From: an uncultured Syntrophaceae bacterium
GTDB taxonomy: Bacteria; Desulfobacterota; Syntrophia; Syntrophales; UBA6807
Assembly: GCA_964552105.1 (NCBI GenBank)
Contig: CAZKGS010000001.1
Span: 1-39,908 of the forward strand
DNA: 39,908 nucleotides
Direction: 5' to 3'
The notes under the pieces are model-generated. The model was not told the DNA's origin. It did no database searches and saw nothing but the letters and a program-made list of their open reading frames with translations. Below are positions 10,976-39,907 of this stretch, in pieces (the stretch's first letter is position 1; each line of letters begins with the position of its first letter). Both the position numbers and the translations under genes were made by a program.

Positions 10976-10992
10976 GCTTTAGAAAGATTAAT

Positions 10993-15188: not shown

Positions 15189-15201
15189 GGTAATAGACGT
15201 T

Positions 15202-16560: not shown

Positions 16561-16564
16561 ATAT

Positions 16565-16597: not shown

Positions 16598-16633
16598 AGG
16601 GCAAAGGATTAGGGATTAAAATGAGGGGGGACG

Positions 16634-17764: not shown

Positions 17765-17815
17765 CGTTTTGAGCAGCCGTGTTATGAAAACATGAACTGA
17801 TAAAGAAGGATTAAT

Positions 17816-17977
17816 ATGGTCAAGCTGATTGTCATGGGCATATTAATAGTAGCCTTCTTCACCATTTCAACGTGCAAGGTTGCCGGGAAGGAAGTACCAC
17901 CCGTGATATCTAAAACCTGGGAGAAAGAGGGAGCACTCCTGCAGGAGATACCTCGGCATGTTATAAAATCGAATTAG
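17816..17977 (+). CDS. Small (53 aa) lipoprotein-like ORF in the ftsW-murG gap (below the track's size cutoff)
   Basis: ATG at 17816 with AAGAAGGA 5 nt upstream. Translation: MVKLIVMGILIVAFFTISTCKVAGKEVPPVISKTWEKEGALLQEIPRHVIKSN. It has a hydrophobic signal with a lipobox-like ISTC. TAG at 17975-17977. Confidence 0.4.
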   Translation: MVKLIVMGILIVAFFTISTCKVAGKEVPPVISKTWEKEGALLQEIPRHVIKSN

Positions 17978-18047
17978 AGAAAAGATGTTCCGGACGCAAT
18001 GATGCAAGGCTTCGCATCTGGAATAAAGACGAGCCGCTAAATTTAGT

Positions 18048-20525: not shown

Positions 20526-20531
20526 GAATCT

Positions 20532-21458: not shown

Positions 21459-22294
21459 TGGGACGATCTTTCAAGTCGATTGTTGAGACAAAAAAAAACA
21501 GACTCAGGAGACGTTCAGGTAAGATTTTTGGGGAAATAGTGAAGGCTGTTACGCTGACTGTAGCCATCGGCAGCCTGGCCTTCATTATGGTTTACATATA
21601 CAATTTTGTCATAACAACATCCTATTTTCAATTAACGGATATCTCCGTCAAGGGGACCGGGATAATTGCCCGTAAAGAGGTTTTGAGCCTGGCGGGTGTT
21701 GGCTCCCATAACAATATCTTAACACTGAACCTGAAAGAGATTTCGCGAAAAGTTGAAACAAACCCCTGGGTAAAAAGTGTATCAATAGGAAGAGAACTTC
21801 CCGACAGATTGGTTATAGAGGTTACAGAAAGATGCCCTGAGGCTCTCGTGCTCGTGGATGGGAATTTCTATATTATGGACCGGGATGGATACATATTTAA
21901 AAGATATGAAAAGGGTGACGGTTTTCATCTGCCCGTACTGAACGGTTTTTGCAAAAATGGAACTATTAACAGGGGTCTCATAAAAAAAGTCGTGATTCTT
22001 CTGAGTTTTATTTCGTCCAACAGGGATTTCCCCGGGATGGAACATATCTCTGAAATATATGGAGATGACACTTACGGCTTTTCGCTTTTCACAAGGAGAG
22101 GGTTGTGCCTTCACCTCGGTTTTGGGAATTATGGGGGTAAACTGGAGAGACTCAGGCCGGTCCTGACAGATCTAACCCGGAAAAACCTGAATAACGTCTA
22201 TTTGAGCATTGATCTTTCCGATTCTAATAGGGTTGTTGTTAAGCGAAACAATATTTTTAATCAGAAACGTTCGCCAGCGGGCTACAGCGCATAA
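21455..22294 (+). CDS. ftsQ: Cell division protein FtsQ (POTRA domain)
   Basis: N-terminal TM segment, then a POTRA-like ISVKGTGIIARKEVLSLAGV...NPWVKSVSIGRELPDRLVIEVTER. Position between murB and ftsA, with ATGA overlap with murB. Confidence 0.8.
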   Translation: MMGRSFKSIVETKKNRLRRRSGKIFGEIVKAVTLTVAIGSLAFIMVYIYNFVITTSYFQLTDISVKGTGIIARKEVLSLAGVGSHNNILTLNLKEISRKVETNPWVKSVSIGRELPDRLVIEVTERCPEALVLVDGNFYIMDRDGYIFKRYEKGDGFHLPVLNGFCKNGTINRGLIKKVVILLSFISSNRDFPGMEHISEIYGDDTYGFSLFTRRGLCLHLGFGNYGGKLERLRPVLTDLTRKNLNNVYLSIDLSDSNRVVVKRNNIFNQKRSPAGYSA

Positions 22295-22355
22295 AGAAGG
22301 ATATGGATGGATAATTCAGGTGTTTGATTATTAATCGAGGAAAGGCGGAAGATAT

Positions 22356-23582
22356 ATGGCAAAGCGTGGCAACATGATTGTAGGATTGGATATAGGAACT
22401 ACCAAGACCTGTGCCATTATCGGTGAGGCCACTGATTCAGGAGTCGATATCATCGGAATAGGCTCTCATCCTTCGCGGGGATTGAGAAAGGGAGTTGTAG
22501 TTAATATCGATAGTACCGTCGATTCCATAAAAAGAGCCATAGAAGAGGCTGAACTGATGTCCGGATCTGAAATAGGATCTGTTTATGCGGGTATCGCGGG
22601 GAGCCACATAGAGGGATTGAATAGTCACGGTATTGTGGCGGTCAAGGGTCGTGAAGTTGATGGAGACGATGTTCGAAGGGCAATTGAAGCAGCCAGGGCT
22701 ATTGCTATTCCCCTCGATAGAGAAATTTTCCACACATTGCCCCAGCATTTCATTGTTGATGATCAGGATGGGGCAAAGAACCCCATAGGGATGTCGGGAG
22801 TTCGACTTGAGGCAAAGGTTCATATTGTTACCGGTGTTATAACATCGATTCAGAACATTGTTAAATCAGTTAACCGTGTAGGATTAGATGTGAGCGATAT
22901 TGTTCTCGAGCAGTTAGCATCAAGTGAAGCGGTTCTCAGTCAGGATGAAAAGGAACTGGGAGTGGCCATAATAGATATTGGAGGTGGGACTACAGATGTC
23001 GCGGTATTTGTGGAAGGAAGCATCAAACATACTGCTGTCTTGTCGGTTGCAGGTGATTATCTTACCAATGACATAGCTGTTGGTTTGCGGACTCCCATGA
23101 ATGAGGCTGAAAAAATAAAGATAAAGTACGGATGTGCCTATACCCCTTTAATCTCGTCGGACGATAGTATAGAGGTTCCCAGTGTGGGTGGGAGGACTCC
23201 AAGGAAGGTCTCACGGCAGATTCTCGGAGAGATTATTGAACCCCGGGTGGAAGAAATTTTCCGTTTGGCCCACAGGGAGATTATTAAATCGGGTTACGAA
23301 GATCTTCTGGCCGCAGGTATTGTTTTGACAGGGGGAACGGTAATCATGGAGGGTATAACAGAATTAGGTGAACATGTATTTAATATGCCCATACGTCGTG
23401 GATATCCAATAGGCATAGGAGGACTTACCGATGTTGTTAACAGTCCTTTGTATGCTACCGGTGTGGGACTGGTTGTTTATGGAAGCAAGAACAGGTCTGA
23501 ACGTGTGTTCAAAAAAAGTGAAGGTAATATATTCGGCAAAGTTGCCCGCAGGGTGAAAAAATGGTTTGTTGATTTTTTTTAG
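22356..23582 (+). CDS. ftsA: Cell division protein FtsA
   Basis: Actin-fold motifs [24 protein letters not shown] and VLTGGT. C-terminal amphipathic [14 protein letters not shown] membrane-targeting helix. Confidence 0.95.
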
Positions 23583-23598
23583 AAGGGAGGGAGTGTGT

Positions 23599-24750
23599 AT
23601 GTTCGAATTAGTAAAAGGAGGTAGTGAGAATTCGGCGAAGATTAAAGTTGTCGGTATTGGAGGTGGTGGAGGCAACGCCGTAAACGCGATGATATCTTAT
23701 GATCTGAGCGGTGTTGATTTCATAGCAGCAAATACTGATTCTCAGTCTCTGGCAGTATCACGGTCACCCATTAAAATTCAGGTTGGCAGTGAGATCACAA
23801 AAGGTCTTGGAGCGGGGTCAGATCCTGATGTGGGGAAGAAGGCAGCCCTTGAATCCAAAGATGTACTGAGGGATAATCTGAGCGGAGCTGATATGGTTTT
23901 CGTTACGGCAGGCCTTGGTGGTGGTACGGGAACAGGAGGAGCACCCGTTGTGGCCGGGATTGCTAAAGAACTCGGGGCGCTTACCGTCGCTGTTGTAACA
24001 AAACCTTTTCAGTTTGAAGGAAAGAAAAGGGAAAAACAGGCGGAAGAGGGAATAGCCGAGTTGAAAGAAACGGTTGACACGCTTATTGTCATACCAAACC
24101 AGAGACTTCTGAGTGTCGGTGGTCGAAATATGTCGCTTCTGGATGCCTTCAAAAAGGCAGATGATATCCTTTATCACGCTGTGAAGGGGATATCTGATCT
24201 CATAATGGTTCCCGGTTTAATCAATCTTGATTTTGCCGACGTGAAAAACGTCATGTCGGAAATGGGATTGGCTCTCATGGGGACGGGAATTGCAAGCGGA
24301 GAAAACAGAGCTGTAGAAGCGGCCCAGAAGGCCATATCTTCTCCTTTGCTGGAAGATAACACCATTCAGGGCGCCCGCGGTGTGCTGCTCAACATTACCG
24401 GTGGATCAGAAATGACACTATTTGAGGTAAATGAAGCATCAACCCTTGTGCAGACGGAAGCACATGATGATGCCAATATCATCTTCGGGACGGTTATTGA
24501 TGACAATATGGGAGATGAAATGCGTATCACGGTGATTGCCACCGGATTCGATTCAAAAGGAAGGAACAAACAGGATATTCCATCTGTTTCAGGTTTTGTT
24601 AGCTATAAAAGAGAGGATCTCTCAACGCCTGCTTTTATCAGGAAGGAGAAGAGTGCGGATAAGCCTGTTGTTGTAAAGATGGGAATGATCGATGATGTTG
24701 ATAATACCGACTTTGAAGTTCCAGCATTTTTAAGAAGACAGGCAGATTAG
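23599..24750 (+). CDS. ftsZ: Cell division GTPase FtsZ
   Basis: [34 protein letters not shown] and the C-terminal [12 protein letters not shown] peptide. The start is set at ATG 23599 (GGGAGGGAG RBS); the track ORF begins at 23566. Confidence 0.95.
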
Positions 24751-27337: not shown

Positions 27338-28024
27338 TTAATCGGTCTTTTCCTCTGCCGGTTCCTGCTCGTTTGCGACTGGTTCAGTAACCTTTTCCTG
27401 GGCTTTTCCTTCGTCAGATTTTACATCCTTACCTTTTTCTTCCTGTTCTTCAGTCGCTGGTGTTGCAATAGCCTCCGGGACTTCACCTTCAGCAGACTTC
27501 ATTGCCTCGATTTTTGCTTCCTGCTCTTTTATCTGTTCGGTCAGGTCTTTAATCTGCCGTTCTGTAATTGAAACCCCGGCTTCTATATTGATCCTTTCAC
27601 CTTCAATCTTATGTTTTTTGGTCTTGAGACTGGCTATGTCCTTGATGTTATCTTCCTTCTTGCCAAGACCCGATCTGTCAATTGCTTTCAGCTTCACAAT
27701 GTCCAGGGAAAAAGAAGCTGCCTTTAAATCCTTTTCGGCCAGATCCTGCTTATAATCTGCGTATTTTTTCTGATTTGAGGCCAGATCATATTTGAGTTCG
27801 GCAAGCTTCAATTTTTCTTCGTTAACTTTCAAGTCATACCCAGCCTTCTGAATTCCTTCCTTTTGGTCTTCGGGGACCTGTGCGAACAGATCCTGGTCGA
27901 CATCAGATGTGATTGAACTTACCTTTGAGGTTATGGAACTCGTTATGCTTTCGGTAGTTGCACATCCGAATAATAGAGAAAACGCAAATAGTAGTGTCAG
28001 GTTGATGTATAAAAAACGTTTCAT
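27338..28024 (-). CDS. Coiled-coil lipoprotein with an acidic C-terminal tail
   Basis: ATG at 28024 is preceded by GGAGGGGG. Signal plus lipobox (FAFSLLFGC). The long heptad-like K/E-rich middle (LKLAELKYDLASNQKKYADYKQDLAEKDLK) and E/Q-rich tail give no recognisable family. Confidence 0.6.
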   Translation of the reverse strand: MKRFLYINLTLLFAFSLLFGCATTESITSSITSKVSSITSDVDQDLFAQVPEDQKEGIQKAGYDLKVNEEKLKLAELKYDLASNQKKYADYKQDLAEKDLKAASFSLDIVKLKAIDRSGLGKKEDNIKDIASLKTKKHKIEGERINIEAGVSITERQIKDLTEQIKEQEAKIEAMKSAEGEVPEAIATPATEEQEEKGKDVKSDEGKAQEKVTEPVANEQEPAEEKTD

Positions 28025-28213
28025 GATTTCCCCCTCCTTTGGAAGCAGTAAATTTAGGTGACAGGCATCCAGGAATTTTAGATATTCCGGATTGTTGTAA
28101 AACGCCCTCAAATTATCATGAAAAGAGACTCTGGTAAAGATTTTAATATGAATTTTTCTGAGGCTAGAGGATACGAAAACTTGTTTAGTCTTTAAAATAT
28201 GCGAGCCGGTTTT

Positions 28214-29251
28214 CTAAAAATTATGAATGGCCGTTGATTTGAAGGAAAGTAACATTTCGATCCCTTCCTGAATTCCTAATTCAAAAAGTGAACTTTTTGT
28301 AATCAGGGATTTGAAGGTGACATTTTCTACCATAACATCAACTTCATAATAGAGACCTTGATCAAGCACTCCGGTGACTGTTCCTCTGAATGAATTCCTC
28401 ATGCTGGAGGCCAGGCTTTCTTTACTGAGAACTATGTTCTCAGGCCGGATAGCAATGTAGCCATGGCTGTTGGCCGGTTTACGTCCCAGTTCAATTTCTA
28501 TACTGCCTGTCAAGGCTTTTGTGTCTCGAAATTGTGCTGCAAAAAGATTTTTCATTCCCACAAAATCGGCCACAAAGGTCGAATCAGGCCGCTGAAAAAT
28601 ATCTTCCATGCTTCCTGTCTGTTCTATTATCCCATTGTTCATGACGGCTGCCCGATCTGCAAGAGAAAGGGCTTCGGCGAAGTCGTGGGTCACCATCAGG
28701 AATGTAACGTTGGAATTTTTATGAAGCCTTTTCAGGCCGGCCCTTATCTCTTCTCTGAAGTTGGTATCCAGTGCGGAAAGGGGCTCGTCAAGGAGAAGCA
28801 CGCTCGGGTTTACCATCAAGGCCCTTGCCAGTGCGACGCGCTGCAATTCGCCGCCGCTCAAGTTGAGGGGGAAGCGCTTTAAGAGGTGAGAAAGATTCAG
28901 ATCTTCAACGAGGCGATTCAGCCTTTTTTCCGCCTGGGGTTTGTCGATTTTATGAAAGTGAAGGCCGTAATTAATATTCTCCAAAACGGTCAGGTGTGGA
29001 AATAGAGAGTAGTCCTGATAGACGATTCCTACTCCCCGTTTTTCGGGAGGTAATTTCGTTATATTTTTTTTACCTATGATGATGTTACCGCTTTTAGTCT
29101 TTATCAGGCCGGCTAAGGCTTCAAGGAGAACAGTCTTTCCTGCTCCTGTAGGTCCCATTAAGATAAAAAATTCATTTTCCTCAATGTTCAGATTAATATC
29201 ACGAAGATTGAATTCACTGAGATGAATGTTGAGGTTTTCTATTTTGATCAT
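28214..29251 (-). CDS. wtpC: Tungstate/molybdate ABC transporter ATP-binding protein with a C-terminal TOBE domain (WtpC/ModC-like)
   Basis: Walker A GPTGAGKT, LSGGELQRVALARAL signature, Walker B LLLDEP. The C-terminal 70 aa are TOBE-like (FRGTVTGVLDQGLYYEVDV). The ATG at 29251 overlaps the permease stop (ATGA). Confidence 0.8.
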   Translation of the reverse strand: MIKIENLNIHLSEFNLRDINLNIEENEFFILMGPTGAGKTVLLEALAGLIKTKSGNIIIGKKNITKLPPEKRGVGIVYQDYSLFPHLTVLENINYGLHFHKIDKPQAEKRLNRLVEDLNLSHLLKRFPLNLSGGELQRVALARALMVNPSVLLLDEPLSALDTNFREEIRAGLKRLHKNSNVTFLMVTHDFAEALSLADRAAVMNNGIIEQTGSMEDIFQRPDSTFVADFVGMKNLFAAQFRDTKALTGSIEIELGRKPANSHGYIAIRPENIVLSKESLASSMRNSFRGTVTGVLDQGLYYEVDVMVENVTFKSLITKSSLFELGIQEGIEMLLSFKSTAIHNF

Positions 29252-30033
29252 GCTTCTTTCTTGTTTCGTAGTGTAAGAATCCGTAAAATCAGGAACAGGG
29301 CCAGACAAACAGAAACCAGCCAGACTGCAACGGGCTGCGAGTATTTAAGTCCGTATGCCTCGAAGCGTTCGTAGATCATTACCGGTGCGATCATTGGATG
29401 ATAGGCAACGATCACGACCGCACCAAATTCACTGATCGCGCGGGCGCTGCACATTATAATGCCAATTAGCATACTGCGCCAGGCAAGAGGAAACGTAATC
29501 CTGAAAAAGGTGCTGAACATTGAGGCTCCAAGACTCCGTGACACATTCTCAAGTCTCGGGGATATGCTTTCAAATCCGTTCTTGACGGCATTCACATAGA
29601 AAGGCAATCCCACGAAAGTCAGAACCACGACAATGCCTGTTACGCTTCCCATTATTCTTATGCCGAGGTCGCTGAAAAATTGACCTATCCAGTGATTTCT
29701 TCCTGCAACACTGAGGATTGCGATTCCCACAACGGGATGCGGGATTACAATAGGAAGATCGATAATACTTTCAACAAATCGCTTGCCTGTGAAATCGGTT
29801 CGGGCCAGAAGGTAAGCGAGGGGCGTTCCAAAGACAAAGGAGATAATTGCGGCCAACCCGGCTGTGTAAATACTCAGCCAGATCGACCGCACAACATCTT
29901 TGTCCTTAATGGTTTCCTTAAGCATGGCAAAAGAAGGCGCCGTCATCATTTCGACGAGGGGGATAAGGATAAAGGCCATTATTACAATGCCGCATGAAAT
30001 AGTTATCCAGAAAAAAGGTTCTTTTGACCTCAT
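29248..30033 (-). CDS. wtpB: Tungstate/molybdate ABC transporter permease (WtpB/ModB-like)
   Basis: Six TM segments, the IDLPIVIPHPVVG motif and the EAA-loop region SRSLGASMFSTFFRITFPL. Confidence 0.8.
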   Translation of the reverse strand: MRSKEPFFWITISCGIVIMAFILIPLVEMMTAPSFAMLKETIKDKDVVRSIWLSIYTAGLAAIISFVFGTPLAYLLARTDFTGKRFVESIIDLPIVIPHPVVGIAILSVAGRNHWIGQFFSDLGIRIMGSVTGIVVVLTFVGLPFYVNAVKNGFESISPRLENVSRSLGASMFSTFFRITFPLAWRSMLIGIIMCSARAISEFGAVVIVAYHPMIAPVMIYERFEAYGLKYSQPVAVWLVSVCLALFLILRILTLRNKKEA

Positions 30034-30046
30034 TTGTTGTTACCTG

Positions 30047-31060
30047 TTACTCTTTAATTTCCACCAGTCTTTGCAGTCCCGCAGGCAGTATTGCCATCAT
30101 TTCTGCTGTTGAAACCCTGCATGGGATAAAGGGAGGCTGTCCCATTTCTTTGAGAATTTTAAGTCCGCCCTCCGGATTAAGCATATACTGTAAAAAGGCA
30201 ATGGCTGCCTCCCTGTTGGGCGCATCTTTTATCAGAGTAACTCCGTACGTGCAAGATTTTCCATTTTTCTTTATGGTCGTACCCGGTTTTTTGCCCGTGA
30301 GTTCAACCATCGCCTGCTTATAAAAGTTGTCATACTTATAATTTCCCAGGTTTATCTGATCGGGAAGTTCCACGAATTTGAGGCCATGCTGAACAGCTAC
30401 GGATCGGTACTCCCAGGCATAATCCATATTTCCGGTCTGTAGAAGGGCAACCAATTCCACCGATTTGGGTCTGATGTTTTCCTTCGGGCGGTTGTTGATA
30501 AGATTTTGATAAAGCCCTGGTTTTTTATAGTGTTTTTCTGCCAGTTGAAGGACCATGAGAGATCGGTAACCGCAGGGATCAGCGTTCGGATCGGAGTGTC
30601 CCCACACCACGCCCTTCTTTGTCAGAATCTTGTACCAGTTCCCGGCATTAATTTTATTGGCGTATCTGCTTTTGTCCGTGTAGCAGAGGACCAAACGATT
30701 CGTGGCAAAGCGAATATTCCAGTTCGCATATTCCGGGATGAGCATTGTGTTAATGACGGTGAAATCAGCGGATGCCATAATGTCGCAGGGTTTTTTGAGA
30801 TCGGATATCTTTCTCGCGCACCTGCGGCTTCCCGCTGCTTCCCGTACAATATCCACTCCCGGGTGTTTGGCCTCAAACGCCTTTTCCATTTTGGCGAGTG
30901 GAACGGTCAAGCTCCCGGCCTGAAATATAATCACCTTGCCGGTTGGCTGTTTATCCTTTGCCCATCCCGTATGGGGATAGGCTAGTAGACTTGCCATAAA
31001 AAGCGTCAAAACCGGTAGGATTACCAGAAGCCATTTGCATCTATTTTTCTTTTTCATCAT
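30047..31060 (-). CDS. wtpA: WtpA-type tungstate/molybdate periplasmic binding protein
   Basis: Signal peptide, then [54 protein letters not shown] and [20 protein letters not shown]. These closely follow the archaeal/anaerobe WtpA family as I recall it. AAGGAGGAG RBS. Confidence 0.8.
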
Positions 31061-31690: not shown

Positions 31691-31897
31691 TTACTCCCTT
31701 CCTACCATAATTTCCGTAGCTTTGATTAAAGCAACAGCCTTGTCACCAGCTTTTAACCCTAATCCTTCAGCCGATTTTTTTGTAACAATGGCAACTACTT
31801 CATTTTCCCCTATCTTGAGGGTAATCTCTGCCATGACCTGCCCCATGTTTATCTCCTTGACTGTACCAGCCAATTTGTTTCTTGCACTTACTTTCAT
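31691..31897 (-). CDS. mop: Mop/TOBE molybdate- or tungstate-binding protein (molbindin)
   Basis: 68 aa from ATG 31897 (AGGGGG RBS): MKVSARNKLAGTVKEINMGQVMAEITLKIGENEVVAIVTKKSAEGLGLKAGDKAVALIKATEIMVGRE, a typical single Mop domain. Confidence 0.8.
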   Translation of the reverse strand: MKVSARNKLAGTVKEINMGQVMAEITLKIGENEVVAIVTKKSAEGLGLKAGDKAVALIKATEIMVGRE

Positions 31898-32026
31898 CGT
31901 AGATGCCCCCTGTTTTTCATAGCTTGTATCCGGATATGTTGTGAAACCACATTTTTTAAATATAGCTTTTCCTTCGGGAGATGCAACAAAATTCACAAAT
32001 TCTTTTACCAGCTTTGTATTCCCCTC
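31898..32026 (-). pseudogene. Remnant of the C-terminus of a ModA-type periplasmic binding protein, in frame with mop
   Basis: After a TGA at 32027-32029 the minus-strand frame reads EGNTKLVKEFVNFVASPEGKAIFKKCGFTTYPDTSYEKQGAST and runs into the Mop ATG with no stop. KEFVxFxxSPEGxxIFKKxGF is the usual C-terminal helix of ModA-like binding proteins. No N-terminal part of that protein is present upstream. Confidence 0.5.
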
Positions 32027-32253
32027 TCAATTCAACTTTTCTTTGTCAGTTTTTTTGACTGAGTTCGCCAGAAGGATCTCTTGATTAAATATGCGATCTG
32101 GTAGTTTATGTCAATATTAAATATTATTGGTTAGTATAGCATATATTAGGACATTATTCTCCTGTTATATGCTTTATCCGTAACTCCTGCGTCTTTTGTG
32201 CAAGTATTGGTATAGACAGCTAAAGGTTGAAAGGTGAGAGTAAAAAACCAATT

Positions 32254-32410
32254 TTGACGACTTAGTAAAAAGTAGAACCTCCTCTCCCCTGGCAGGAGGG
32301 GGTAAAGGGAAGGGGGCATAATGACATGAAATAATGTTGCATTCACCCTCACCCCAACCCTCTCCCATCTAGGGAGAGGGGGCATTTTTGACTTTTTGTG
32401 AGACTGTCAA
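32254..32410. repeat. Full copy of MITE-like family A (inverted relative to 1101-1247)
   Basis: Ends are TTGACGACTTAGTAAAAAGTA (32254-) and TGACTTTTTGTGAGACTGTCAA (32389-32410). The interior, CCTCTCCCCTGGCAGGAGGGGGTAAAGGGAAGGGGGCAT ... ATTCACCCTCACCCCAACCCTCTCCCATCTAGGGAGAGGG, is collinear with the reverse complement of copy 1. Confidence 0.7.
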
Positions 32411-32622: not shown

Positions 32623-34701
32623 ATGAATGTAAGGTTTTTGTCAGCACTGTTATTAGTTTTTATCTTATTGTTTTTTTCGAGTCCTGCATGGTCGGCAGGG
32701 GACGCTGATCAGCCGGATTATAAGGTCTACACATTGGGGGAAATCCTTGTAAGTGAAGAGAACCCGGCGGTTAAGGAGATTGCCATAACGAATGAGGTAA
32801 CAGCCGAAGATATCAAGGCTACAAACAGCCGAACAGTTGCTGAGGCCCTGAGCTATGTTCCCGGGATTCAGGTTACCACAGGCCGGAAAGCTGAGCCAAA
32901 TATTTCCATTCATGGATTTGGTCAGGGGCAGACATTGATTCTTGTTGATGGTGTTCCATATTATGAAACGAATTATGGAAAATTGAATCTTGATCAGATT
33001 CCAGCGGATATTATTGCGAAGATTGAAGTCACAAAAGGGGCCCCCTCGGTCCTCTACGGGCCAAATGCTGAAGCAGGAGTTATAAATATTGTTACCAAGA
33101 AGCCTTCTGAAAAACCTTCGGCGTCGGCAAGCTTTGAGGTAGGGGAAAAAAGCTATAACAGGGAATCGGTTTCTCATGGCATGAAGACCGGTATATTTAA
33201 TTACTGGCTCAATTACACGCACAGCGAGACTGATGCCTGGAAAATGGCCAACAGTTTTGATCCGAGATTAGGGACTACTACAAAGAAACCTGGGGGGAAA
33301 TCCCAGGCTATATTGGAAGATGGCAGTTTCCGCGATAATTCTGACTCCGAGAGTAACAGTTTCTGGGCAAAATTGGGCATAGAACCAAATCCGGACTCTG
33401 AATATTATGTGAATTTTCATCTTATAAAGACAGAAAAAGGTATGCCTTCATCAATCTCTGAAAATAGTGTATTTCCGAACAGGCCCGCATTTTCTCAATT
33501 TGGCCGGATAGACAAATATAATGACTGGGGTATCGACTTAAATGGGAGGCAGAAAGTTATTGATCAACTGATCTTGAAGACAAATTTCTTCTATCATAAT
33601 CACGAAGATGATTATGTCTCTTATGATGATCAAACTTACAGTACACCTCTCGGGATCAGCACATACAAAGACTATCTCGCGGGAGGCAATTTGTTGGCTG
33701 ATTACAAGCCTGTGGAGTGGAACGTCTTGAGAGCTGCCGTTCACTTCAAGGTTGATTCTCACAGGGAACGCGATGAAACATATCTGCCATTTGCGGAATC
33801 GTTATCGCATACCGGATCCATTGCCCTCGAGAATGAATTCAATTTAATAGAAAACCTCTCCATAGTAGCCGGGTTGAGTTATGATTCATTTCGAGTTGTG
33901 AAGGCAAAGTATAACGACACCGACGGCAGTGGCAACCTTATCAATCAGAATGATGCGGCTAGCTCTAATACAAAAGATGCTTATAACCCGATGATCGGTG
34001 CGGTTTATACGTTTGCGGATTCTACCAAACTTTTCGGATCTGTAGCCAAAAAGACGCGTTTTCCCACTTTGAGTCAGCTTTACTCGACCAAGTCTGGAAA
34101 TCCTGATCTGGGTGCGGAACAGAGTATTAATTATACGGTTGGTGCTTCCCACACCTTCTTTGATATATGCAGGGCGGAACTATCCTTTTTCCATCACGAT
34201 ATATCTGACTGGATAAGTCGTGACGGACCCGTCTGCTACGGTAATACATATCAAAACTGGGCCGAGATCAAGATGTATGGTTTTGAGTTCAGCTCCGATA
34301 TTTACCCGATGGAAGATCTTATCCTTAAGTTGGGTTATACCTACAACTACGCTCGCGATAAAAGTGACGGCCATGTAACGGATAATGTTACAGACGTTCC
34401 CGAACACAAGATAGATGCCCAAATCCAGTACACCATTCCTTCGCTGAAAACGAAGCTTAATCTTAACGGTATGTATATGGCAAAAACGTACTCGCAATTG
34501 CCAACGCCATCAAAGCCTGCACTTGAAGAACGCGAGGGGGATGACTACTGGCTTTTTGGTGCGAGAATTACACAGCCTGTTATGAAATATCTTGAGGCAT
34601 ATATCGCAGTCAATAACATGTTTGACAATGATTATGAGCCGGATGATGGCTTCCCTGCTCGTGGAAGGGAAATTTTCTGTGGCATTACAGCAAAATACTA
34701 A
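32623..34701 (+). CDS. TonB-dependent outer-membrane receptor (plug plus beta-barrel)
   Basis: Signal peptide ending AWSAGD, TonB-box-like TLGEILVSE, plug motifs (TAEDIKATNSRTVAEALSYVPGIQV, IHGFGQGQTLILVDGVP, IEVTKGAPSVLYGPNAEAGVINIVTKKP) and a long barrel ending ...GREIFCGITAKY. AAGGAGG RBS. Confidence 0.9.
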   Translation: MNVRFLSALLLVFILLFFSSPAWSAGDADQPDYKVYTLGEILVSEENPAVKEIAITNEVTAEDIKATNSRTVAEALSYVPGIQVTTGRKAEPNISIHGFGQGQTLILVDGVPYYETNYGKLNLDQIPADIIAKIEVTKGAPSVLYGPNAEAGVINIVTKKPSEKPSASASFEVGEKSYNRESVSHGMKTGIFNYWLNYTHSETDAWKMANSFDPRLGTTTKKPGGKSQAILEDGSFRDNSDSESNSFWAKLGIEPNPDSEYYVNFHLIKTEKGMPSSISENSVFPNRPAFSQFGRIDKYNDWGIDLNGRQKVIDQLILKTNFFYHNHEDDYVSYDDQTYSTPLGISTYKDYLAGGNLLADYKPVEWNVLRAAVHFKVDSHRERDETYLPFAESLSHTGSIALENEFNLIENLSIVAGLSYDSFRVVKAKYNDTDGSGNLINQNDAASSNTKDAYNPMIGAVYTFADSTKLFGSVAKKTRFPTLSQLYSTKSGNPDLGAEQSINYTVGASHTFFDICRAELSFFHHDISDWISRDGPVCYGNTYQNWAEIKMYGFEFSSDIYPMEDLILKLGYTYNYARDKSDGHVTDNVTDVPEHKIDAQIQYTIPSLKTKLNLNGMYMAKTYSQLPTPSKPALEEREGDDYWLFGARITQPVMKYLEAYIAVNNMFDNDYEPDDGFPARGREIFCGITAKY

Positions 34702-34757: not shown

Positions 34758-35456
34758 ATGAAATTCCGGCATTGTGTTTTCATAGCAATCGTTTTCCACC
34801 TTTCTATTATGGTAATTCCGATGGAAGCCACTGTCGGCAGGAAATATGGAAACGTTAAGTTAATTATTGCGGATGGGGAGATTGCCCTGTCTTCGAATCC
34901 TGAACAAAAAAAACGTGTAAAAATTACCCCTCCGGTAATTCGAAAAGATGCGACTCTTCGGAAGAAGAAAAAGACCATCAGAAAAAGCATCAAAAGAAAG
35001 TATGTTGAAAAACGAAAGGCTCCGTCGCTGATAAAACCCCCTTTGGATGTTCAGCCTGATGCAGCAGACACATTATCGATGGATGTTTCTGTTTTAAATC
35101 ATGAGACTGATAATCCTGATGTCCAAGATCCTGCGCATGCACCCTTAGCCGTGACAGGGGGCGAACCTGTAGTGGTGAAGTTTGGTTCAGCGGAAGGGCC
35201 GCATTTCCAGAGACGGGTTTTGCCAAGGTATCCCTTTATGGCAAAGAGATTAAACAAAGAAGGGGAAGTGATCCTGATGCTGACCATAGATGAAGATGGG
35301 AAGCTTACAAATGTAGAAGTAATAAAAAAAGCGGGATTCGGATTCGATGAAGAGGCCCTGAAAGCTGTCTGGAAATCTCTCTTTTCCCCTTCTGTGATAA
35401 ACGGCAGGTCCATGATCTGTAGGGTAATTCTCCCTGTGCGGTTTGAATTGAGGTAA
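34758..35456 (+). CDS. tonB: TonB-family energy transducer
   Basis: N-terminal TM segment with His (VFIAIVFHLSIMVI), a K/R/P-rich linker, and a C-terminal TonB_C domain (PRYPFMAKRLNKEGEVILMLTIDEDGKLTNVEVIKKAGFGFDEEALKAV). Confidence 0.85.
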   Translation: MKFRHCVFIAIVFHLSIMVIPMEATVGRKYGNVKLIIADGEIALSSNPEQKKRVKITPPVIRKDATLRKKKKTIRKSIKRKYVEKRKAPSLIKPPLDVQPDAADTLSMDVSVLNHETDNPDVQDPAHAPLAVTGGEPVVVKFGSAEGPHFQRRVLPRYPFMAKRLNKEGEVILMLTIDEDGKLTNVEVIKKAGFGFDEEALKAVWKSLFSPSVINGRSMICRVILPVRFELR

Positions 35457-35461: not shown

Positions 35462-36007
35462 GTGATTAATTTTTTTCTAAAAGGGGGGCTGCTGATGTGG
35501 CCCATACTTTTTTGTTCCATTATGGCCTTGGCCATAACTATTAATAAAACAGTGCAATTCAAGATTCTTCTGAAACAGCTCGCTTGTCCTGCGCCGGATA
35601 TTTTCGACAATAAACCGGATCATATCGCTTCATTGCTGGATGCTCTGGAAAAAAAACTGGACGAAAAAGAGGTCTCATTGATTGGTGCTGGGGCGCTGAA
35701 AGTCCTGGAAAAGGGAGTAGGTTCTTTATCCCTTATTGCCGCTATTACACCGCTGCTGGGTCTTACCGGTACAGTGCTGGGTATGATAGCCAGTTTTCGT
35801 GTCATTGCTGCCCAGGGAAGTGTTTTGAGGGTAGAGATGCTGGCAAATGGGATATGGGAAGCCCTGATTACGACGGCTGCCGGACTTCTCGTGGCCATAC
35901 CGGTTGAAATAGCCTACTACTATCTCGAAGGACGTCTGGACGAGATTGCTATCGGCATGAAGCGCTTGGCGATGCATTTTAACCCGGAGAAGAAAGATGG
36001 AATTTAG
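35462..36007 (+). CDS. exbB: ExbB/TolQ/MotA-family proton channel
   Basis: 181 aa, three TM segments. GGLLMWPILFCSIMALAITINK at the N-terminus and LGLTGTVLGMI...ALITTAAGLLVAIP at the C-terminus. Confidence 0.85.
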   Translation: MINFFLKGGLLMWPILFCSIMALAITINKTVQFKILLKQLACPAPDIFDNKPDHIASLLDALEKKLDEKEVSLIGAGALKVLEKGVGSLSLIAAITPLLGLTGTVLGMIASFRVIAAQGSVLRVEMLANGIWEALITTAAGLLVAIPVEIAYYYLEGRLDEIAIGMKRLAMHFNPEKKDGI

Positions 36008-36392
36008 AAGAAGAAAACGAGTTTTTCTTCGTACAAACATTGCTCCCCTTGTGGATGTCGTTTTTCTCCTTTTGCTTTTTTTCATGCTGACATCACGTAT
36101 AGCGGCGGAACCGGCTATCGAAATCAAACTCCCGGAATCGAAAACCGCCGCTGTGCAGGAAGTGGAGGATATAGTCATTTCAATAACGAAAGAAGAGATG
36201 ATTTATATGGGAGGGGAAAAGATTGCCCTGAATGAAATTTTATCCACAATCAAGAACAGGTTAAGGGGATGTAAGCAGTCAGTAAAGATAAAAGCAGATA
36301 AAAATGTCTCACTCGGTTTTCTGGTGAAAGTAGTGGATGAAGTTAAACTTTCCGGAGCCCCGGCTTTTAATATTGTAACAGAGAGGATGTAA
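35997..36392 (+). CDS. exbD: ExbD/TolR-family protein
   Basis: 131 aa. NIAPLVDVVFLLLLFFM TM segment followed by a periplasmic domain (VKIKADKNVSLGFLVKVVDEVKLSG). Overlaps exbB by 11 nt. Confidence 0.85.
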   Translation: MEFRRRKRVFLRTNIAPLVDVVFLLLLFFMLTSRIAAEPAIEIKLPESKTAAVQEVEDIVISITKEEMIYMGGEKIALNEILSTIKNRLRGCKQSVKIKADKNVSLGFLVKVVDEVKLSGAPAFNIVTERM

Positions 36393-36402: not shown

Positions 36403-37410
36403 ATGTTAAAAAAAATACTGATCTTTTTAATTTCCCTTGAGTTAATTCTTTTTGCCTTTCAGATATGGATAGTTCCTGTCTCCGTGTTAAGTGTCACGGG
36501 TGAGGTAAAACAGAAGCTGCACATGGATATGGATGATCTTACAGAGTTCGATTGTGCCACCGTCAGGCTTAACGAGGTATCGAAGGATGGACGTTTTCAC
36601 GGTGTGTTTTGTTATAGGGGCCCAACACTGAGGGAATTGCTCGAATCTGCCATAATTGAAAAGTCAAAACCGGATTTTAACAAAGACCTTGACCTTGCCA
36701 TTGTAGTCCGCAACAAATCAGGGGACGAGGTCGTTCTCTCGTGGGGTGAAATATTTTACAGGAACCCGGCAGACGTTATAATAGCACTGGAGGCCATGTC
36801 CGTTATGCCTCACCATGACAAAGCTCATGTCCCCGAAGTTTACTGGTCCTGGCTGGATCAGCTCAATCGCAAAGTCGGTATGCCGAGGCTTGTAATTGCA
36901 AATGATTTTTACACGGATCGCTCCCTCGAAGAAATTACGGAGATTAAGGTGGTTGATTTGCACCCAAAGGTCGACAAGAAAGTTATGAACATTCTGTTTT
37001 CACCTGAATTCACTGTATCCGGCGATGTAGAACATCCTTTGGATATCGATACATTGTCTTCTTGGCAGCGTAAAGAGATTCTTTATAAAGAAGTCGGAGA
37101 TGGACAGGGTTATCATGGACTGAAGCTGGCAGGTGGTGTGCCCCTGGTGGACATCCTTAAGAAGGCGGGTATCAGGGACGATTTATGTTCTGCCGTTGTA
37201 GTTTCTGCCCCGGATGGTTATCGGACTCTTTTATCATATGGCGAACTGTTCATGGCGCCTTCCGGCAGGAATGTTATGATCGCTGATATGAAAGCCAAAA
37301 GACCAGTGAAAAAAGGGGGCAGGTTTTTCATGGTCATACCGGATGATCTCTCCGCGGACAGGAATGTAAAGGCTGTAGAAAAAATAGAGGTAATAAGCCT
37401 GCAAAGGTAA
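36403..37410 (+). CDS. Signal-anchored periplasmic protein with two tandem sulfite-oxidase/YedY-like (Oxidored_molyb-like) domains
   Basis: Domain 2 (about 37009-37401): TVSGDVEHPLDIDTL...GGVPLVDILKKAGI...VVVSAPDGYRTLLSYGELF...GGRFFMVIPDDLSADRNVKAVEKIEVISL follows the V-G-x-V...W/GV-x-L-x-D-L-L...DGY...P-x-R-x-V-x-P...VK-x-V-x-x-I pattern of small Moco-oxidoreductase-fold proteins. Domain 1 (about 36484-36990) is a divergent copy (SVTGEVKQKLHMDMDDL...LRELLESAII...IVVRNKSGDEVVLSWGEIF...PRLVIANDFYTDRSLEEITEIKVVDL). Confidence 0.55.
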   Translation: MLKKILIFLISLELILFAFQIWIVPVSVLSVTGEVKQKLHMDMDDLTEFDCATVRLNEVSKDGRFHGVFCYRGPTLRELLESAIIEKSKPDFNKDLDLAIVVRNKSGDEVVLSWGEIFYRNPADVIIALEAMSVMPHHDKAHVPEVYWSWLDQLNRKVGMPRLVIANDFYTDRSLEEITEIKVVDLHPKVDKKVMNILFSPEFTVSGDVEHPLDIDTLSSWQRKEILYKEVGDGQGYHGLKLAGGVPLVDILKKAGIRDDLCSAVVVSAPDGYRTLLSYGELFMAPSGRNVMIADMKAKRPVKKGGRFFMVIPDDLSADRNVKAVEKIEVISLQR

Positions 37411-37424: not shown

Positions 37425-38198
37425 ATGGAAACCGGACTTACACTATTTAAGAGCTGCACCGCGATTGCATCAATGTTGTACCTTGTCTCGGGTATTTCTT
37501 GTTTTATCCATGCAAAACGGATGGGGATCTTTCTAATCCTCATCGGATTGACGGTCAATATCGCCATCCTTGTTATGAGAGGACATGTCGAGGGAAGGTG
37601 GTATCTTGATCTGATGTTTACCGAGGGGGCGGAATTGCTTGTCCTCCCTGCCGGGATGGCGTGTGTCGTCCTCTTCCTCCTGTGGCGAGGTGCCGATACC
37701 GAAGGGCTTATTGTTATGATTCCCCTTGTGATAACTTCCATTATTCCCTTTGTTATCCCGGAGGATGTTGTCCTTCCTTCAATGAAGGCTCAAGTGCTGG
37801 TGGCCCCACTATTTTTTCTGACAGAGGCACTAAGCGCCGCCCTCTTTATTTCTGCAGGTGTCCTGGCCTTTGCATACCTTGTCTCCGGCTTGAATTCTGA
37901 AATGGTCTACAGCCGTAGGTTTGCCCTTTGGGGCTTTCTCATATTTACCTTATGCCAGATTATCGGGGCAATATGGGCATATATTGGATGGTCATACCCC
38001 TTTTCATGGAGCAGTAGACATCTGGCGAGCGCCTCGGTCTGGTGTGTCTATGCGGCCCTGATACATGTTCGTCTGATCGAAATACGACCGGAGATAAAAG
38101 CCGTTTGTGCGGTGCTGGGATGCATTCCTTTGATATACATTTTCTATCACCATGAGATAGTAGAAGTCTTGCACGGGGGGGTGTTTTGGTTGATATGA
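37425..38198 (+). CDS. CcsA/ResC-like (heme-handling protein family) polytopic membrane protein with a degenerate WWD motif
   Basis: GAIWAYIGWSYPFSWSSRHLASASVWCVYAALIH (37965-38066) aligns with the CcsA/ResC core GAxWAxxAWGxYWxWDPKExWxLxxWxxYAxxLH. The flanking G-A-x-W-A, S-W, W-x-x-Y-A and L/I-H are retained, but W-D-P-K-E is replaced by W-S-S-R-H. About 7-8 TM segments. Confidence 0.6.
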   Translation: METGLTLFKSCTAIASMLYLVSGISCFIHAKRMGIFLILIGLTVNIAILVMRGHVEGRWYLDLMFTEGAELLVLPAGMACVVLFLLWRGADTEGLIVMIPLVITSIIPFVIPEDVVLPSMKAQVLVAPLFFLTEALSAALFISAGVLAFAYLVSGLNSEMVYSRRFALWGFLIFTLCQIIGAIWAYIGWSYPFSWSSRHLASASVWCVYAALIHVRLIEIRPEIKAVCAVLGCIPLIYIFYHHEIVEVLHGGVFWLI

Positions 38199-38941
38199 GA
38201 CGCATCCCGGCCTTTTTAGAACGTATGGATATTGGATTCTGGTTACTCATTGCGGCATCAATAACCCTTTTTTGTGGTGCACTGATTGCAGATTTCAATC
38301 CGTCGGAATTAAGAAGATTAAATACACTCCACTTTCCGGAATGGCTGGCCGGGTTTTACAATCGCCCTGAGCTCTATCTATGGATACTTGTGCTCTTTGC
38401 CATACTCTTTATGCTTGTGGTCGATACAATCTTCTGTACCGTTGCGTACATTAAAAATCATTGCAGCTCCGGGATATCATTCAGAAAACTCAGCATAATC
38501 ATGTTTCATGTGTGTTTTTTATTGTTTCTCTCGGGACATTTTTTGAATGAATTTTCAGGGGTTAACGAGACACTGATCCTGGAAAGGGGGACTGTAACCG
38601 GCATGGGTGCGGACGGGCGGCTGATGATTAAACCGGCATCTATTGAGAGAAGCTCATTTAATATAGAAGGGCAGGTAGTCTCAAGGGGTGTAAAGACGGT
38701 CTTATATGTCAGGAACAATGATGGAAATATGACAACGATCTGTCCTGAAACCATGAATCCGGACTTTGCATCAGGATACAGCTTCCACATTTCTATGAAA
38801 GACAGGGATTTATCAGATAAACAGGTCAGGATTATCGTGCGGAGAGATTATGGTCTGTACCCCTTTGCTATTGGCGGGATAATAACCATTGTGGCCATTT
38901 TTTTCTACATACTGAGTTCAATCCATCCTCGCAGGTTATAG
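38195..38941 (+). CDS. Short ResB/CcsB-like membrane protein
   Basis: The ATG at 38195 overlaps the preceding stop (ATGA). It has an N-terminal TM segment, YLWILVLFAILFMLVVDTIFCTV (a ResB-like second TM segment ending in Cys), and SIIMFHVCFLLFLSGHFL followed by a roughly 100-aa soluble segment (ETLILERGTVTG...NIEG...TVLYVRNNDG...MNPDFASGYSFHIS) and a final TM segment. This is ResB topology at about half the usual length. Confidence 0.5.
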   Translation: MRRIPAFLERMDIGFWLLIAASITLFCGALIADFNPSELRRLNTLHFPEWLAGFYNRPELYLWILVLFAILFMLVVDTIFCTVAYIKNHCSSGISFRKLSIIMFHVCFLLFLSGHFLNEFSGVNETLILERGTVTGMGADGRLMIKPASIERSSFNIEGQVVSRGVKTVLYVRNNDGNMTTICPETMNPDFASGYSFHISMKDRDLSDKQVRIIVRRDYGLYPFAIGGIITIVAIFFYILSSIHPRRL

Positions 38942-39025
38942 ATCTGCAGCCCATGAAAATCCGGGTTAAATCATGTTTTGTAATGTTATTGACCACTATA
39001 ACGTTAAGTGGTAAGAACGATACTT

Positions 39026-39907
39026 ATGAAAGAAGAACTTCTTACTACAAAGGAACTTGCCGATTTTCTGAGGCTTAACGAGAAGAAAATATACCAACTC
39101 GTTAAAGAGAGTGGTATCCCCCATGTAAGGATTGCGGGGAAGTGGCTCTTTCCTAAAGATCATATCATTCGCTGGATTGATGAAAACGTGCAAAGGGAAA
39201 AAGACATCCACATTATAGGGAGTGACGATATGCTTCTGGGAAGGCTTTTGTCGATTTATTCTCGTGAGAATTTCCCCGAATCCATTGCTTTTTATTCGTC
39301 AGTGGGCAGCCTGAGAGGTATTCAGGCCCTGTCCGGGAAGAAAGGACAGGCATGCTGCACACATCTCCTTGATATGGAAACGGGAGAATATAATCTTCCC
39401 ATTCTGAGCAGGATACTTTCCCCTCAACGGTATGTCGTAGTCAATTTATGGCACAGGGAACAAGGTCTTATCGTTAAAAAAGGCAACCCTCTCGCCATAA
39501 AGGGTCTGGGGGATCTTGCAGGAAAGAAGGCAAGGTTCGTTAACAGGAATGAGGGGTCCGGCACGCGGACTCTGCTCGAGTATTTCCTGATGGAGAAGAG
39601 TTTATCTGAAAAGGATATCATCGGTTTTGCTGACGAAGTCAATACTCATGTAGAAGTAGCCCTTAAGGTCTTCTTTGATGAAGCGGACGTGGGTTTGGGT
39701 ATCGAGTATGTTGCCCATCTCCTCCCTCTCGATTTTATTCCACTCAGGGAAGAACGTTTTGATCTTGTTGTTCCAAAAGAACTCTGGTCGACAAGCGTCA
39801 TGAAAGGGTTTATTTCTTATATCGAACCAACAAAAATAAGCAAATTATCTCATAATCTGCCCGGTTATAATTTAAAAGATACGGGGAAAATTATTTTTGA
39901 AGGTTAA
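39026..39907 (+). CDS. Transcriptional regulator: excisionase-type HTH plus PBP-like oxyanion-binding domain (TunR-like)
   Basis: The N-terminus LLTTKELADFLRLNEKKIYQLVKESGIPHVRIAGKWLFPKDHIIRWI is an HTH_17/excisionase-type motif. The remainder (IHIIGSDDMLL...VGSLRGIQALSGKKGQACCTHLLD...VNRNEGSGTRTLLE...FDLVVPKE) fits the PBP_like domain found in MoeA-associated and tungstate-responsive TunR-type regulators. TAA at 39905-39907. The track ORF begins at GTG 39008. Confidence 0.65.
   Translation: MKEELLTTKELADFLRLNEKKIYQLVKESGIPHVRIAGKWLFPKDHIIRWIDENVQREKDIHIIGSDDMLLGRLLSIYSRENFPESIAFYSSVGSLRGIQALSGKKGQACCTHLLDMETGEYNLPILSRILSPQRYVVVNLWHREQGLIVKKGNPLAIKGLGDLAGKKARFVNRNEGSGTRTLLEYFLMEKSLSEKDIIGFADEVNTHVEVALKVFFDEADVGLGIEYVAHLLPLDFIPLREERFDLVVPKELWSTSVMKGFISYIEPTKISKLSHNLPGYNLKDTGKIIFEG

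Follow-up and report, generated by a model that had tools for sequence, protein, structure and literature searches.

A 39,908-nucleotide stretch of DNA from an uncultured Syntrophaceae bacterium (assembly GCA_964552105.1, contig CAZKGS010000001.1, positions 1 to 39,908 of the forward strand; the whole stretch is referred to here as the window) carries, in an operon that starts with a gene for a TonB-dependent outer-membrane receptor, a gene for a CcsA-like membrane protein followed directly by one for a small partner that resembles CcsB/ResB. On balance this pair is probably a non-lyase mini-CcsBA module of a TonB-dependent tungsten-acquisition system, and the CcsA-like protein, judged from its residues, looks like a functional, strongly constrained CcsA paralogue that is unlikely still to be a cytochrome c synthetase. 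A preliminary description of the window had singled out the altered WWD loop of this protein; the finding takes its meaning from context not seen then, namely the apparently obligate mini-CcsB partner, the TonB-dependent operon and the link to tungstate. The characterised heme-handling members CcsA, CcmC and CcmF attach heme to proteins, whereas this clade appears to have lost one defining histidine and to have had its loop rewritten, and it would represent a natural separation-of-function variant in which the respective tasks of the WWD platform and of the transmembrane heme site could be told apart. A heme-handling protein with a seemingly rebuilt active site is found in a new functional context, probably with a new job, and the system bears on the passage of tungsten through the outer membrane in anaerobes reliant on tungstoenzymes.

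The gene at the center of the analysis is the following (coordinates are those of the window throughout):

37425-38198, + strand: CcsA-like membrane protein with eight predicted helices, 257 aa; intact open reading frame (ORF), PF01578 heme-handling family

Against the Pfam model PF01578 (Cytochrom_C_asm) the ORF scores 32.1 bits, narrowly over the threshold of 29.9, and against the NCBIfam equivalog model for CcsB (TIGR03144) the protein reaches 37.7 bits, far under the cutoff of 187.6; the existing annotation of its family is "cytochrome c biogenesis protein CcsA" at best, or hypothetical. Sequence searches of the PDB with the single protein or with a narrow 19-sequence profile returned no heme-handling match. 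With a profile of 70 sequences, residues 9-250 align to residues 638-895 of Helicobacter hepaticus CcsBA (PDB ID: 7s9y) with an E value of 2.3e-25, and the same profile matches CcmF (PDB ID: 6zmq) with an E value of 4e-7. The AlphaFold2 (AF2) model has a pLDDT of 93.6, and its best PDB match in Foldseek is the open state of CcsBA (TMq 0.79), with CcmF (rank 3 of the hits) and CcmC coming after it. The Pfam score, the profile alignment and the model agree that the protein has the PF01578 core fold, a CcsA-type helical bundle round a Trp-rich loop. Its orientation in the membrane rests on homology with CcsBA, positive-inside charge counts being too weak to fix the topology.

Relatives are few. 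A word-indexed search of 5.8 billion proteins returned only 20, and a full HMMER scan of 1.84 billion representatives returned 346 at E <= 0.001; genome and metagenome scans, the latter made with the core-clade alignment, gave loci solely from Syntrophales, Syntrophaceae and "Deltaproteobacteria" metagenome-assembled genomes. Two sets are distinguished in what follows: the core clade, comprising the WSYPFSWSxRH sequences from about 30 distinct Syntrophales/Desulfobacterota loci, and the RH group, a wider set with the pattern GWxxxFxWxxRH.

The loop itself is:

37974-38021, + strand: remodelled WWD loop, W184-A-Y-I-G-W189-S-Y-P-F193-S-W195-S196-S-R198-H199, register as aligned to 7s9y

The preliminary description had read this region by eye as a WWD domain whose scaffold is kept and whose W-D-P-K-E core is altered, and that reading is borne out: positions 37965-38066 (+ strand), within the CcsA-like ORF, translate exactly as reported to GAIWAYIGWSYPFSWSSRHLASASVWCVYAALIH, and the register is confirmed by hmmalign, by the profile alignment to 7s9y and by the AF2/Foldseek comparison. 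In the hmmalign alignment of 169 relatives, WAYIGWSYPFSWSSRHL lies under the canonical WAxxAWGxYWSWDPKETW, the canonical sequences there reading WGxYWSWDPKET. In the profile alignment to 7s9y, W184, W189, F193 and W195 correspond to W828, W833, W837 and W839, and S196, the S197 position, R198, H199 and H214 to D840, S841, K842, E843 and H858. No ordinary WWD motif occurs elsewhere in the CcsA-like protein. Three of the four loop Trp residues are thus retained, while WD(P/S)KE has become WSxRH, so that the canonical signature W-G-x-aromatic-W-x-W-D-(P/S)-K-E is not matched and the loop instead reads W-S-Y-P-F-S-W-S-x-R-H. D840 is replaced by S196 and E843 by H199. Two points of the earlier wording need correction: the change from Lys to Arg at position 198 is conservative, and not every canonical core has the Pro of WDPKE, H. 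hepaticus CcsBA itself reading WDSKE.

The pattern in the remodelled loop exceeds chance expectation by a wide margin. Among the 19 closest homologues, with identity down to 38%, 16 of the 20 columns from 181 to 200 are invariant, as compared with 47 of 257 columns over the whole protein, and GWSYPFSWSxRH is constant throughout the approximately 30 loci of the core clade. At the DNA level the 36-nt segment encoding GWSYPFSWSxRH occurs in 26 versions among 36 loci, and all differences between them are synonymous except at codon 197, a position that takes ten different residues across the same loci. Every degenerate codon of the motif varies, Gly being encoded by four codons, Pro by four and Arg by five drawn from both codon families. 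(The serines behave differently: Ser196, at 38010-38012 and at the canonical Asp position, is always AGC or AGT, Ser190 and Ser194 are always TCN, and the two codon families are never mixed in the 26 versions.) Conservation of the motif together with DNA variation that is only synonymous implies that the protein is not decaying, and strong purifying selection on it is strongly supported. The idea of a CcsA pseudogene in decay or of an accidental likeness, for which the Pfam score barely over threshold might be cited, can be given virtually no credence; it is refuted by the conservation and the profile alignment, in company with the intact ORF, the motif invariant in about 30 loci and encoded by 26 synonymous DNA versions, the high-confidence AF2 model and the conserved synteny. 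The view in the preliminary description that this is no decaying pseudogene is in this way strongly supported.

The variant also stands apart from bona fide synthetases, and neither of the two grounds for rejection named in the preliminary description, a wrong register with a normal motif elsewhere or a variant common in such enzymes, applies. In a neighbour-joining tree, which is rough and lacks bootstrap support, the WSYPFSWSxRH sequences form one clade adjoining the RH group and apart from the canonical WDPKE clade, whose CcsA-type members retain both WDPKE and the first periplasmic histidine (P-His1). Throughout the RH group, at identities down to 23%, R198 and H199 are invariant, and Ser190, Ser194 and Ser196 are not conserved in that wider set.

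Changes outside the loop bear directly on heme ligation. For the comparison with CcsBA we take H761 to be P-His1 and H858 to be the second transmembrane histidine (TM-His2) in the published numbering. The topology described in PMC10663686 is in accord with this assignment. What defines the heme-handling family is a WWD loop flanked by two periplasmic histidines, to which CcsBA adds two transmembrane (TM) histidines, and all four are needed for its function (PMC6299221, PMC10663686); P-His1 is required in CcsBA and helps to define the family (PMC6299221). P-His1 is an axial heme ligand where the helix before the WWD helix pair ends on the outer side, P-His2 belongs to the loop that follows the last core helix, and TM-His2 to the helix that comes after the WWD loop. 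The corresponding positions in the CcsA-like protein are:

37812-37826, + strand: F130-F131-L-T-E134 at the outer end of helix 5, with F131 at the P-His1 (H761) position
38064-38066, + strand: H214, equivalent of TM-His2 (H858) by alignment to 7s9y and predicted axial ligand position of the inner-leaflet heme site
38148-38153, + strand: H242-H243, close to where the last helix ends on the periplasmic side, candidate equivalent of the second periplasmic histidine (P-His2)

F131, which takes the place of P-His1, lies inside an invariant LFFLTE segment; FFxxE is found in all RH-group sequences, where the canonical counterparts read xHVxxx, and E134 is a new invariant acidic residue. Across 31 RH-group sequences, at identities down to 23%, the invariant polar residues are E134, Q178, R198, H199 and H214. 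H214 is conserved to at least 90% over 70 sequences that include canonical CcsA, and within the RH group it has no exceptions. H243 does not vary among the 19 aligned core-clade sequences, is absent from the WSYPFSWS-type sequences P0023-P0028 and not conserved in the RH group, and its assignment to P-His2 is a candidate one in that the alignment to 7s9y stops before that residue. As far as the alignments indicate, the loss of P-His1 means that the change exceeds the motif, and TM-His2 is retained.

The loss of P-His1 and the lack of CXXCH proteins in the window make a role as cytochrome c synthetase, specialised isoenzymes included, unlikely. None of the ORF segments of 80 aa or more across the window contains CXXCH, and neither CXXCK nor CXnCH (n = 3 or 4) occurs in the operon proteins. 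The suggestion in the preliminary description that lyase chemistry has been lost gains support from the same two observations. Dedicated isoenzymes for unusual heme-binding motifs do exist: NrfI and CcsA1 of Wolinella are reportedly specific for CX2CK and CX15CH sites. Full-length homology to CcsBA and the presence of a CcsB-like partner would fit such an enzyme, but those isoenzymes are said to keep the WWD motif and all four histidines, whereas here P-His1 is Phe and the core is changed, the CcsB equivalog score falls short by a wide measure and the motif searches just given found no substrate, so that a dedicated synthetase isoenzyme must be considered highly improbable. Relative to CcsBA/ResBC (H. 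hepaticus, PDB ID: 7s9y and 7s9z) the likenesses are the fold across the CcsA part, the position of the Trp-rich loop, TM-His2, the basic residue after the loop (K842, R198 here) and the two-gene arrangement with a translationally coupled, His-bearing partner. The differences, beyond Phe for P-His1, Ser for D840, His for E843 and the new invariant E134 and Q178, are that CcsB-type partners have about 540-630 aa as compared with about 250 aa here, where the periplasmic domain is small, and that here neither a CXXCH substrate nor thiol-redox genes lie nearby but rather a TonB-dependent operon with a link to tungstate transport.

The partner is encoded by the next gene:

38186-38941, + strand: putative miniature CcsB/ResB-like partner with four TM helices; coordinates of the ORF call, likely start ATG at 38195

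The ATG at 38195 overlaps the CcsA-like stop codon as ATGA and agrees with the N-termini of homologues. The CcsA-like gene had been described earlier as translationally coupled on both sides; given this start the claim holds downstream, but upstream the preceding gene ends 14 nt before the CcsA-like start codon. Wherever the sequence of a locus reaches past the CcsA-like gene, as it does in 28 loci, the partner, 248-251 aa in length, lies directly 3' of that gene. Its residues C84, H108 and H118 are invariant, and H201 nearly so, even in homologues of 19-26% identity (codons at 38507-38509 for H108, 38537-38539 for H118 and 38786-38788 for H201); H108 and H118 both fall in the motif FHxCFLxFLxGH of the third TM helix (TM3). 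A model built from a 14-sequence alignment, of low confidence (pLDDT 62), has a beta-rich periplasmic domain of about 100 aa, and with this model Foldseek places CcsBA open, CcsBA closed and CcmF as its top three among 350,000 chains. Pfam ResB matches were seen in 11 of 18 members, all sub-threshold (best E 0.0025), and the N-terminal match in the partner from locus L018 is collinear. Taken together these signs are suggestive, not conclusive, of a shrunken CcsB/ResB. A comparable arrangement was seen in a sister group (L019:1-16768), where small CcsA-like proteins with the loop GWGxxVVWED have a 274-aa partner with a faint ResB match; that pair lies inside a cluster of ChlI/ChlD/CobN, ABC2, Peripla_BP_2/FecCD/ABC (BtuFCD-type), CobO and CbiK genes. 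Pairs of mini CcsB and CcsA may be a general accessory of uptake loci for tetrapyrroles or metal chelates.

The operon and the genes that lie divergently from it give the pair its setting. On the + strand the order is receptor, TonB, ExbB, ExbD, Oxidored_molyb-like protein, CcsA-like protein, partner and regulator; WtpABC (28214-31060), trmO and a Mop/TOBE gene are divergent from this operon:

32623-34701, + strand: TonB-dependent outer-membrane receptor of a specific subfamily that accompanies the Oxidored_molyb-like protein (Pfam Plug and barrel)
34758-35456, + strand: TonB (Pfam)
35462-36007, + strand: ExbB (Pfam)
35997-36392, + strand: ExbD (Pfam)
36403-37410, + strand: periplasmic protein of 335 aa with two Oxidored_molyb (sulfite-oxidase-fold)-like domains (PF00174, 26.3 bits against 24)
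39008-39907, + strand: HTH_17 + PBP_like (PF12727) regulator with an oxyanion-binding-type sensor domain (PBP_like, 198.7 bits)
31691-31897, - strand: Mop/molbindin-type TOBE protein (Pfam TOBE, E 8.6e-17), containing a SARN segment
30047-31060, - strand: WtpA (NCBIfam equivalog, 452.8 bits, cutoff 355)
29248-30033, - strand: WtpB (best NCBIfam match, just under cutoff)
28214-29308, - strand: WtpC (best NCBIfam match, just under cutoff)

The assignment of tungsten as the cargo of the receptor is drawn from this gene neighbourhood and is correspondingly provisional: both the window and L046 have a WtpA that scores over its equivalog cutoff, TupA-like binding proteins occur in L024 and L026, and a Mop/TOBE protein and the PBP_like regulator accompany them. 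A gap of 1 kb separates trmO from the receptor gene, and the TOBE gene (ORF 31691-31996) lies in it; a TOBE gene of 69 aa is present in L024. The regulator matches the C-terminal domain of a MoeA-type "molybdopterin biosynthesis protein" model and is conserved in L001, L004, L005, L009, L022, L024, L031, L046 and others. A "TunR-like" label does not suit this HTH_17 + PBP_like regulator, TunR having ModE-like and XerC-like domains.

Homologues of the Oxidored_molyb-like protein score up to 44 bits for that domain, most carry a lipoprotein signal, and the family comprises at least 349 homologue clusters, many of them fused to TP_methylase. Among ten homologues no Cys is conserved as a Mo ligand; C51 of the window protein was considered for this role and rejected, that residue not being conserved. 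C-terminal fusions to a tetrapyrrole-methylase domain (PF00590) were seen at L023:2162-3418, L024:9001-10758 and L034:6219-7973 and in P0334 (115 bits), and such fusions are annotated "precorrin-4 methylase". A signal peptide is present and no TM helix separates the domains, by which the methylase-fold domain would be periplasmic. S-adenosylmethionine is not expected in the periplasm, and in the L034 fusion the GxGPGD motif is degenerate.

Comparison of the loci shows that the association recurs. In the core clade, 17 of the approximately 30 loci have the Oxidored_molyb-like gene directly upstream of the pair, mostly with the full receptor/TonB set and often with WtpA, and in two more the receptor lies downstream of the pair. 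The arrangement of receptor, TonB, ExbB and ExbD is found in at least 14 related loci, and receptors 47-62% identical to that of the window occur in L018, L024, L026 and all full loci. WtpA holds the same position in L001, L007-L009, L012, L031, L039 and L041, accompanied by WtpB and WtpC only in L001 and L031. Among distant RH-group relatives (27-33% identity) the association recurs with different gene orders: receptor, pair, ExbB, ExbD, TonB in L018; Oxidored_molyb-like gene, pair, regulator, ExbB, ExbD, ExbD, TonB in L022; pair, Oxidored_molyb-like gene in L023; and receptor, pair, Oxidored_molyb-like gene in L046, together with the regulator and a WtpA-type transporter (398.4 bits, cutoff 355). 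The Oxidored_molyb-like gene thus adjoins the pair in three different orders, and in L018 and L040 the pair adjoins the receptor without it. The recurrent linkage suggests a TonB-dependent tungsten-acquisition system; neither a TonB-dependent tungstate or molybdate system nor a TonB operon encoding a CcsA-like protein was found described in a literature search of incomplete coverage. At its core the system consists of the receptor, the Oxidored_molyb-like protein and TonB, linked to tungstate transport, and the CcsA-like/mini-CcsB pair is an optional inner-membrane component, since receptor and Oxidored_molyb-like protein are also found without it. In L024 an APC-family transporter of the amino-acid-permease type (L024:10768-12105) lies between the Oxidored_molyb-like gene and exbB, that is, in the slot of the pair, and it could be a non-orthologous replacement for the pair.

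The same comparison bears on a regulatory role. PF01578 includes HemX, which in an organism without c-type cytochromes (Staphylococcus aureus) has a non-synthetase role (PMC5801465), and such roles are accordingly open to members of the family. On this model the CcsA-like protein would sense membrane heme and tune heme synthesis, and one locus, L022, does lie beside genes of alternative heme biosynthesis: siroheme/alternative heme-biosynthesis genes (L022:7252-10252, - strand) stand back to back with the RH-group locus and include precorrin-2 dehydrogenase, radical-SAM proteins and NirDL-like regulators. This is the only heme-synthesis linkage in about 35 loci, however, and the window itself has neither hemA nor other heme-synthesis genes. 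HemX of S. aureus and Bacillus subtilis is a PF01578 member that is no cytochrome c synthetase, as the CcsA-like protein probably is; unlike it, HemX is linked to hemA, regulates the abundance of glutamyl-tRNA reductase and has no CcsB-like partner, an obligate partner and a TonB/tungstate context being foreign to it. A HemX-like regulator is therefore extremely improbable.

A mechanism can be outlined for the preferred reading of the pair as a non-lyase module of the tungsten system. The CcsA-like protein and its partner would form a small CcsBA-like inner-membrane complex in which the transmembrane heme site is kept, with heme held in the inner leaflet by H214 and a TM3 histidine of the partner (H108 or H118), while the external active site would have been rebuilt through Phe at P-His1, WSxRH in place of WD(P/S)KE and the new invariant E134 and Q178. 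The complex would be an accessory inner-membrane part of a system made up of the receptor, TonB-ExbBD and the periplasmic Oxidored_molyb-like lipoprotein, a system co-located and presumably co-regulated with WtpABC or TupABC, the Mop protein and the oxyanion-type HTH/PBP_like regulator. As to what the module does, we tentatively propose, as a plausible reading held with less than even confidence, that the pair may be a permanently b-heme-loaded electron conduit across the membrane. One heme would occupy the inner-leaflet TM-His site, and the remodelled WWD pocket might take another, with H199, H118 or H201 of the partner, or H243 as its ligand; electrons would pass to a step in the periplasm at which the imported species gives up its tungsten to WtpA.

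The conduit model draws on three precedents. In MsrPQ (YedYZ) a periplasmic protein of the Oxidored_molyb family takes electrons from a membrane heme-b protein, and the pairing of such a periplasmic protein with a membrane protein is common to both systems; unlike the proteins described here, MsrP has a conserved Cys that binds its Moco and MsrQ is a member of the ferric-reductase-domain family, whereas here no Cys is conserved and the membrane partner appears to be derived from CcsBA. CcmF, the holocytochrome c synthase of system I, shares the heme-handling fold and has a stable transmembrane heme b between TM-His1 and TM-His2 that serves electron transfer, not transit (PMC10663686); it differs in having the canonical WWD motif and both P-His, in working with CcmH and CcmE, and in being a lyase. 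FoxB is an inner-membrane di-heme reductase that works with the neighbouring TonB-dependent receptor FoxA (bioRxiv 10.1101/2021.01.28.428567). Pairing of a TonB-dependent receptor with an inner-membrane heme reductase is seen repeatedly. Proteins of the FoxB/FpvG type (PepSY_TM) act, with tightly bound hemes in the inner membrane, on the cargo of a neighbouring receptor, as the pair is proposed to do, but their fold is unrelated and their metal is iron or copper, so that the likeness would be one of function only.

Several observations weigh against this interpretation. In seven core-clade loci, and in L020 of the RH group, the pair stands alone, the 5-10 kb examined being free of TonB-system genes; conversely, a receptor of 50-58% identity and an Oxidored_molyb-like protein of 51-53% occur without the pair in L024 and L026, where a TOBE protein, TupA-like transporters and a regulator of the same type adjoin them, and the pair and the Oxidored_molyb-like protein each occur without the other. 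The APC-family permease in a similar position in L024 hints at transport, not redox. The CcsB identity of the partner rests on sub-threshold matches and a poor model (pLDDT 62), and sequence profiles of the partner run against the PDB retrieved neither CcsBA nor anything relevant. Heme binding by the pair is itself inferred. The invariant rebuilt loop suggests a specific periplasmic ligand site, which an electron wire does not obviously need, and the Oxidored_molyb-like protein, having no conserved Mo-ligating Cys, may serve in binding and not in redox catalysis. The tungstate bound by WtpA and TupA is W(VI), for which a reductive step is not obviously required, and the corrinoid/chelatase cluster of L019 and the TP_methylase fusions keep a tetrapyrrole-type ligand in play.

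Some of these points favor instead the main rival, a translocator with a changed ligand, in which a channel of CcsBA type is kept and the rebuilt periplasmic pocket (Ser190, Tyr191, Ser194, Ser196, Arg198, His199, Lys121 and Glu134) binds something other than heme: a tungsten species or chelate delivered by the receptor, a pterin-type cofactor or another tetrapyrrole, which would be moved across or handed over at the inner membrane. CcsBA is itself a heme channel (PMC10663686), and the invariant loop is rich in Ser, Arg and His, where known molybdate pockets, such as that of ModE, use Ser, Arg and Lys (PMC11672702). The permease in the slot between the Oxidored_molyb-like gene and exbB in L024, the location of the pair in L018 and L040, next to a receptor but with no Oxidored_molyb-like protein, the sister clade in a corrinoid uptake/chelatase cluster and the fusions of the Oxidored_molyb-like family to TP_methylase point the same way. 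Nevertheless, the invariant TM-His pair (H214 with H108/H118 of the partner) implies a metal centre with axial His ligands, most simply heme; the three pocket serines vary in the wider RH group; WtpABC or TupABC already imports the oxyanion; and no energy-coupling component is evident. A translocator of this kind is a possible but rather doubtful account of the pair. It is likewise unlikely that the WWD pocket has been repurposed for a non-heme cargo such as a tungsten complex, thiotungstate or a pterin-type W/Mo cofactor, which would be brought by the dedicated TonB-dependent receptor and by a periplasmic protein whose molybdopterin-binding fold is degenerate; if true, the pair would be the inner-membrane step of a new TonB-dependent import of tungsten or tungsten cofactor in anaerobic Desulfobacterota and Nitrospirota.

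A further possibility is a heme exporter that does not ligate its cargo, moving heme from the cytoplasm to the periplasmic face and passing it non-covalently to an acceptor other than a CXXCH protein, for example the Oxidored_molyb-like lipoprotein or its TP_methylase-like domain. Sulfite-oxidase-fold proteins commonly have heme partners (SUOX, SorAB, MsrPQ), the TM-His ligands for heme transit are kept, as largely is the aromatic WWD platform, and there is no CXXCH substrate nearby. The residue that holds heme at the external site, P-His1, is however lost, the putative acceptor is without the pair in many loci and the pair also occurs without the acceptor, and heme binding by the Oxidored_molyb-like protein is unsupported, all of which leaves an exporter improbable in comparison with the non-lyase module proposed here.

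The region around the operon has further features. The TOBE gene has an in-frame N-terminal extension, ASPEGKAIFKKCGFTTYPD, that resembles the C-terminal end of a ModA/WtpA-type binding protein and may be the remnant of a gene. Between it and the receptor gene, 250-490 nt 5' of the latter (in the region of 32135-32176 and 32281-32380), lie an inverted repeat with 17-nt arms and an 8-nt gap, TATAGCATATATTAGGA / TCCTGTTATATGCTTTA, and two palindromic blocks rich in GC, CCTCTCCCCTGGCAGGAGGGGG and CCTCTCCCATCTAGGGAGAGGG. Neither a Moco nor a cobalamin riboswitch turned up when the window and the 1-kb leader were scanned with Rfam, and no Rfam family matched the repeats, which may be operators for the HTH_17/PBP_like regulator or structures in the transcript. 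Just beyond wtpC an ORF of 257 aa (27338-28111, - strand) has no Pfam or NCBIfam match; a homologue 57% identical to it lies directly 5' of the receptor gene in L034 (1218-1757), and the ORF may be part of the same system. Farther away, positions 8943-24750 hold an ordinary dcw cluster (ftsI murE murF mraY murD ftsW murG murC murB ftsQ ftsA ftsZ), followed by a GAF-GGDEF protein, a methyltransferase and a protein of the metallo-beta-lactamase fold, which are unrelated to the CcsA-like gene.

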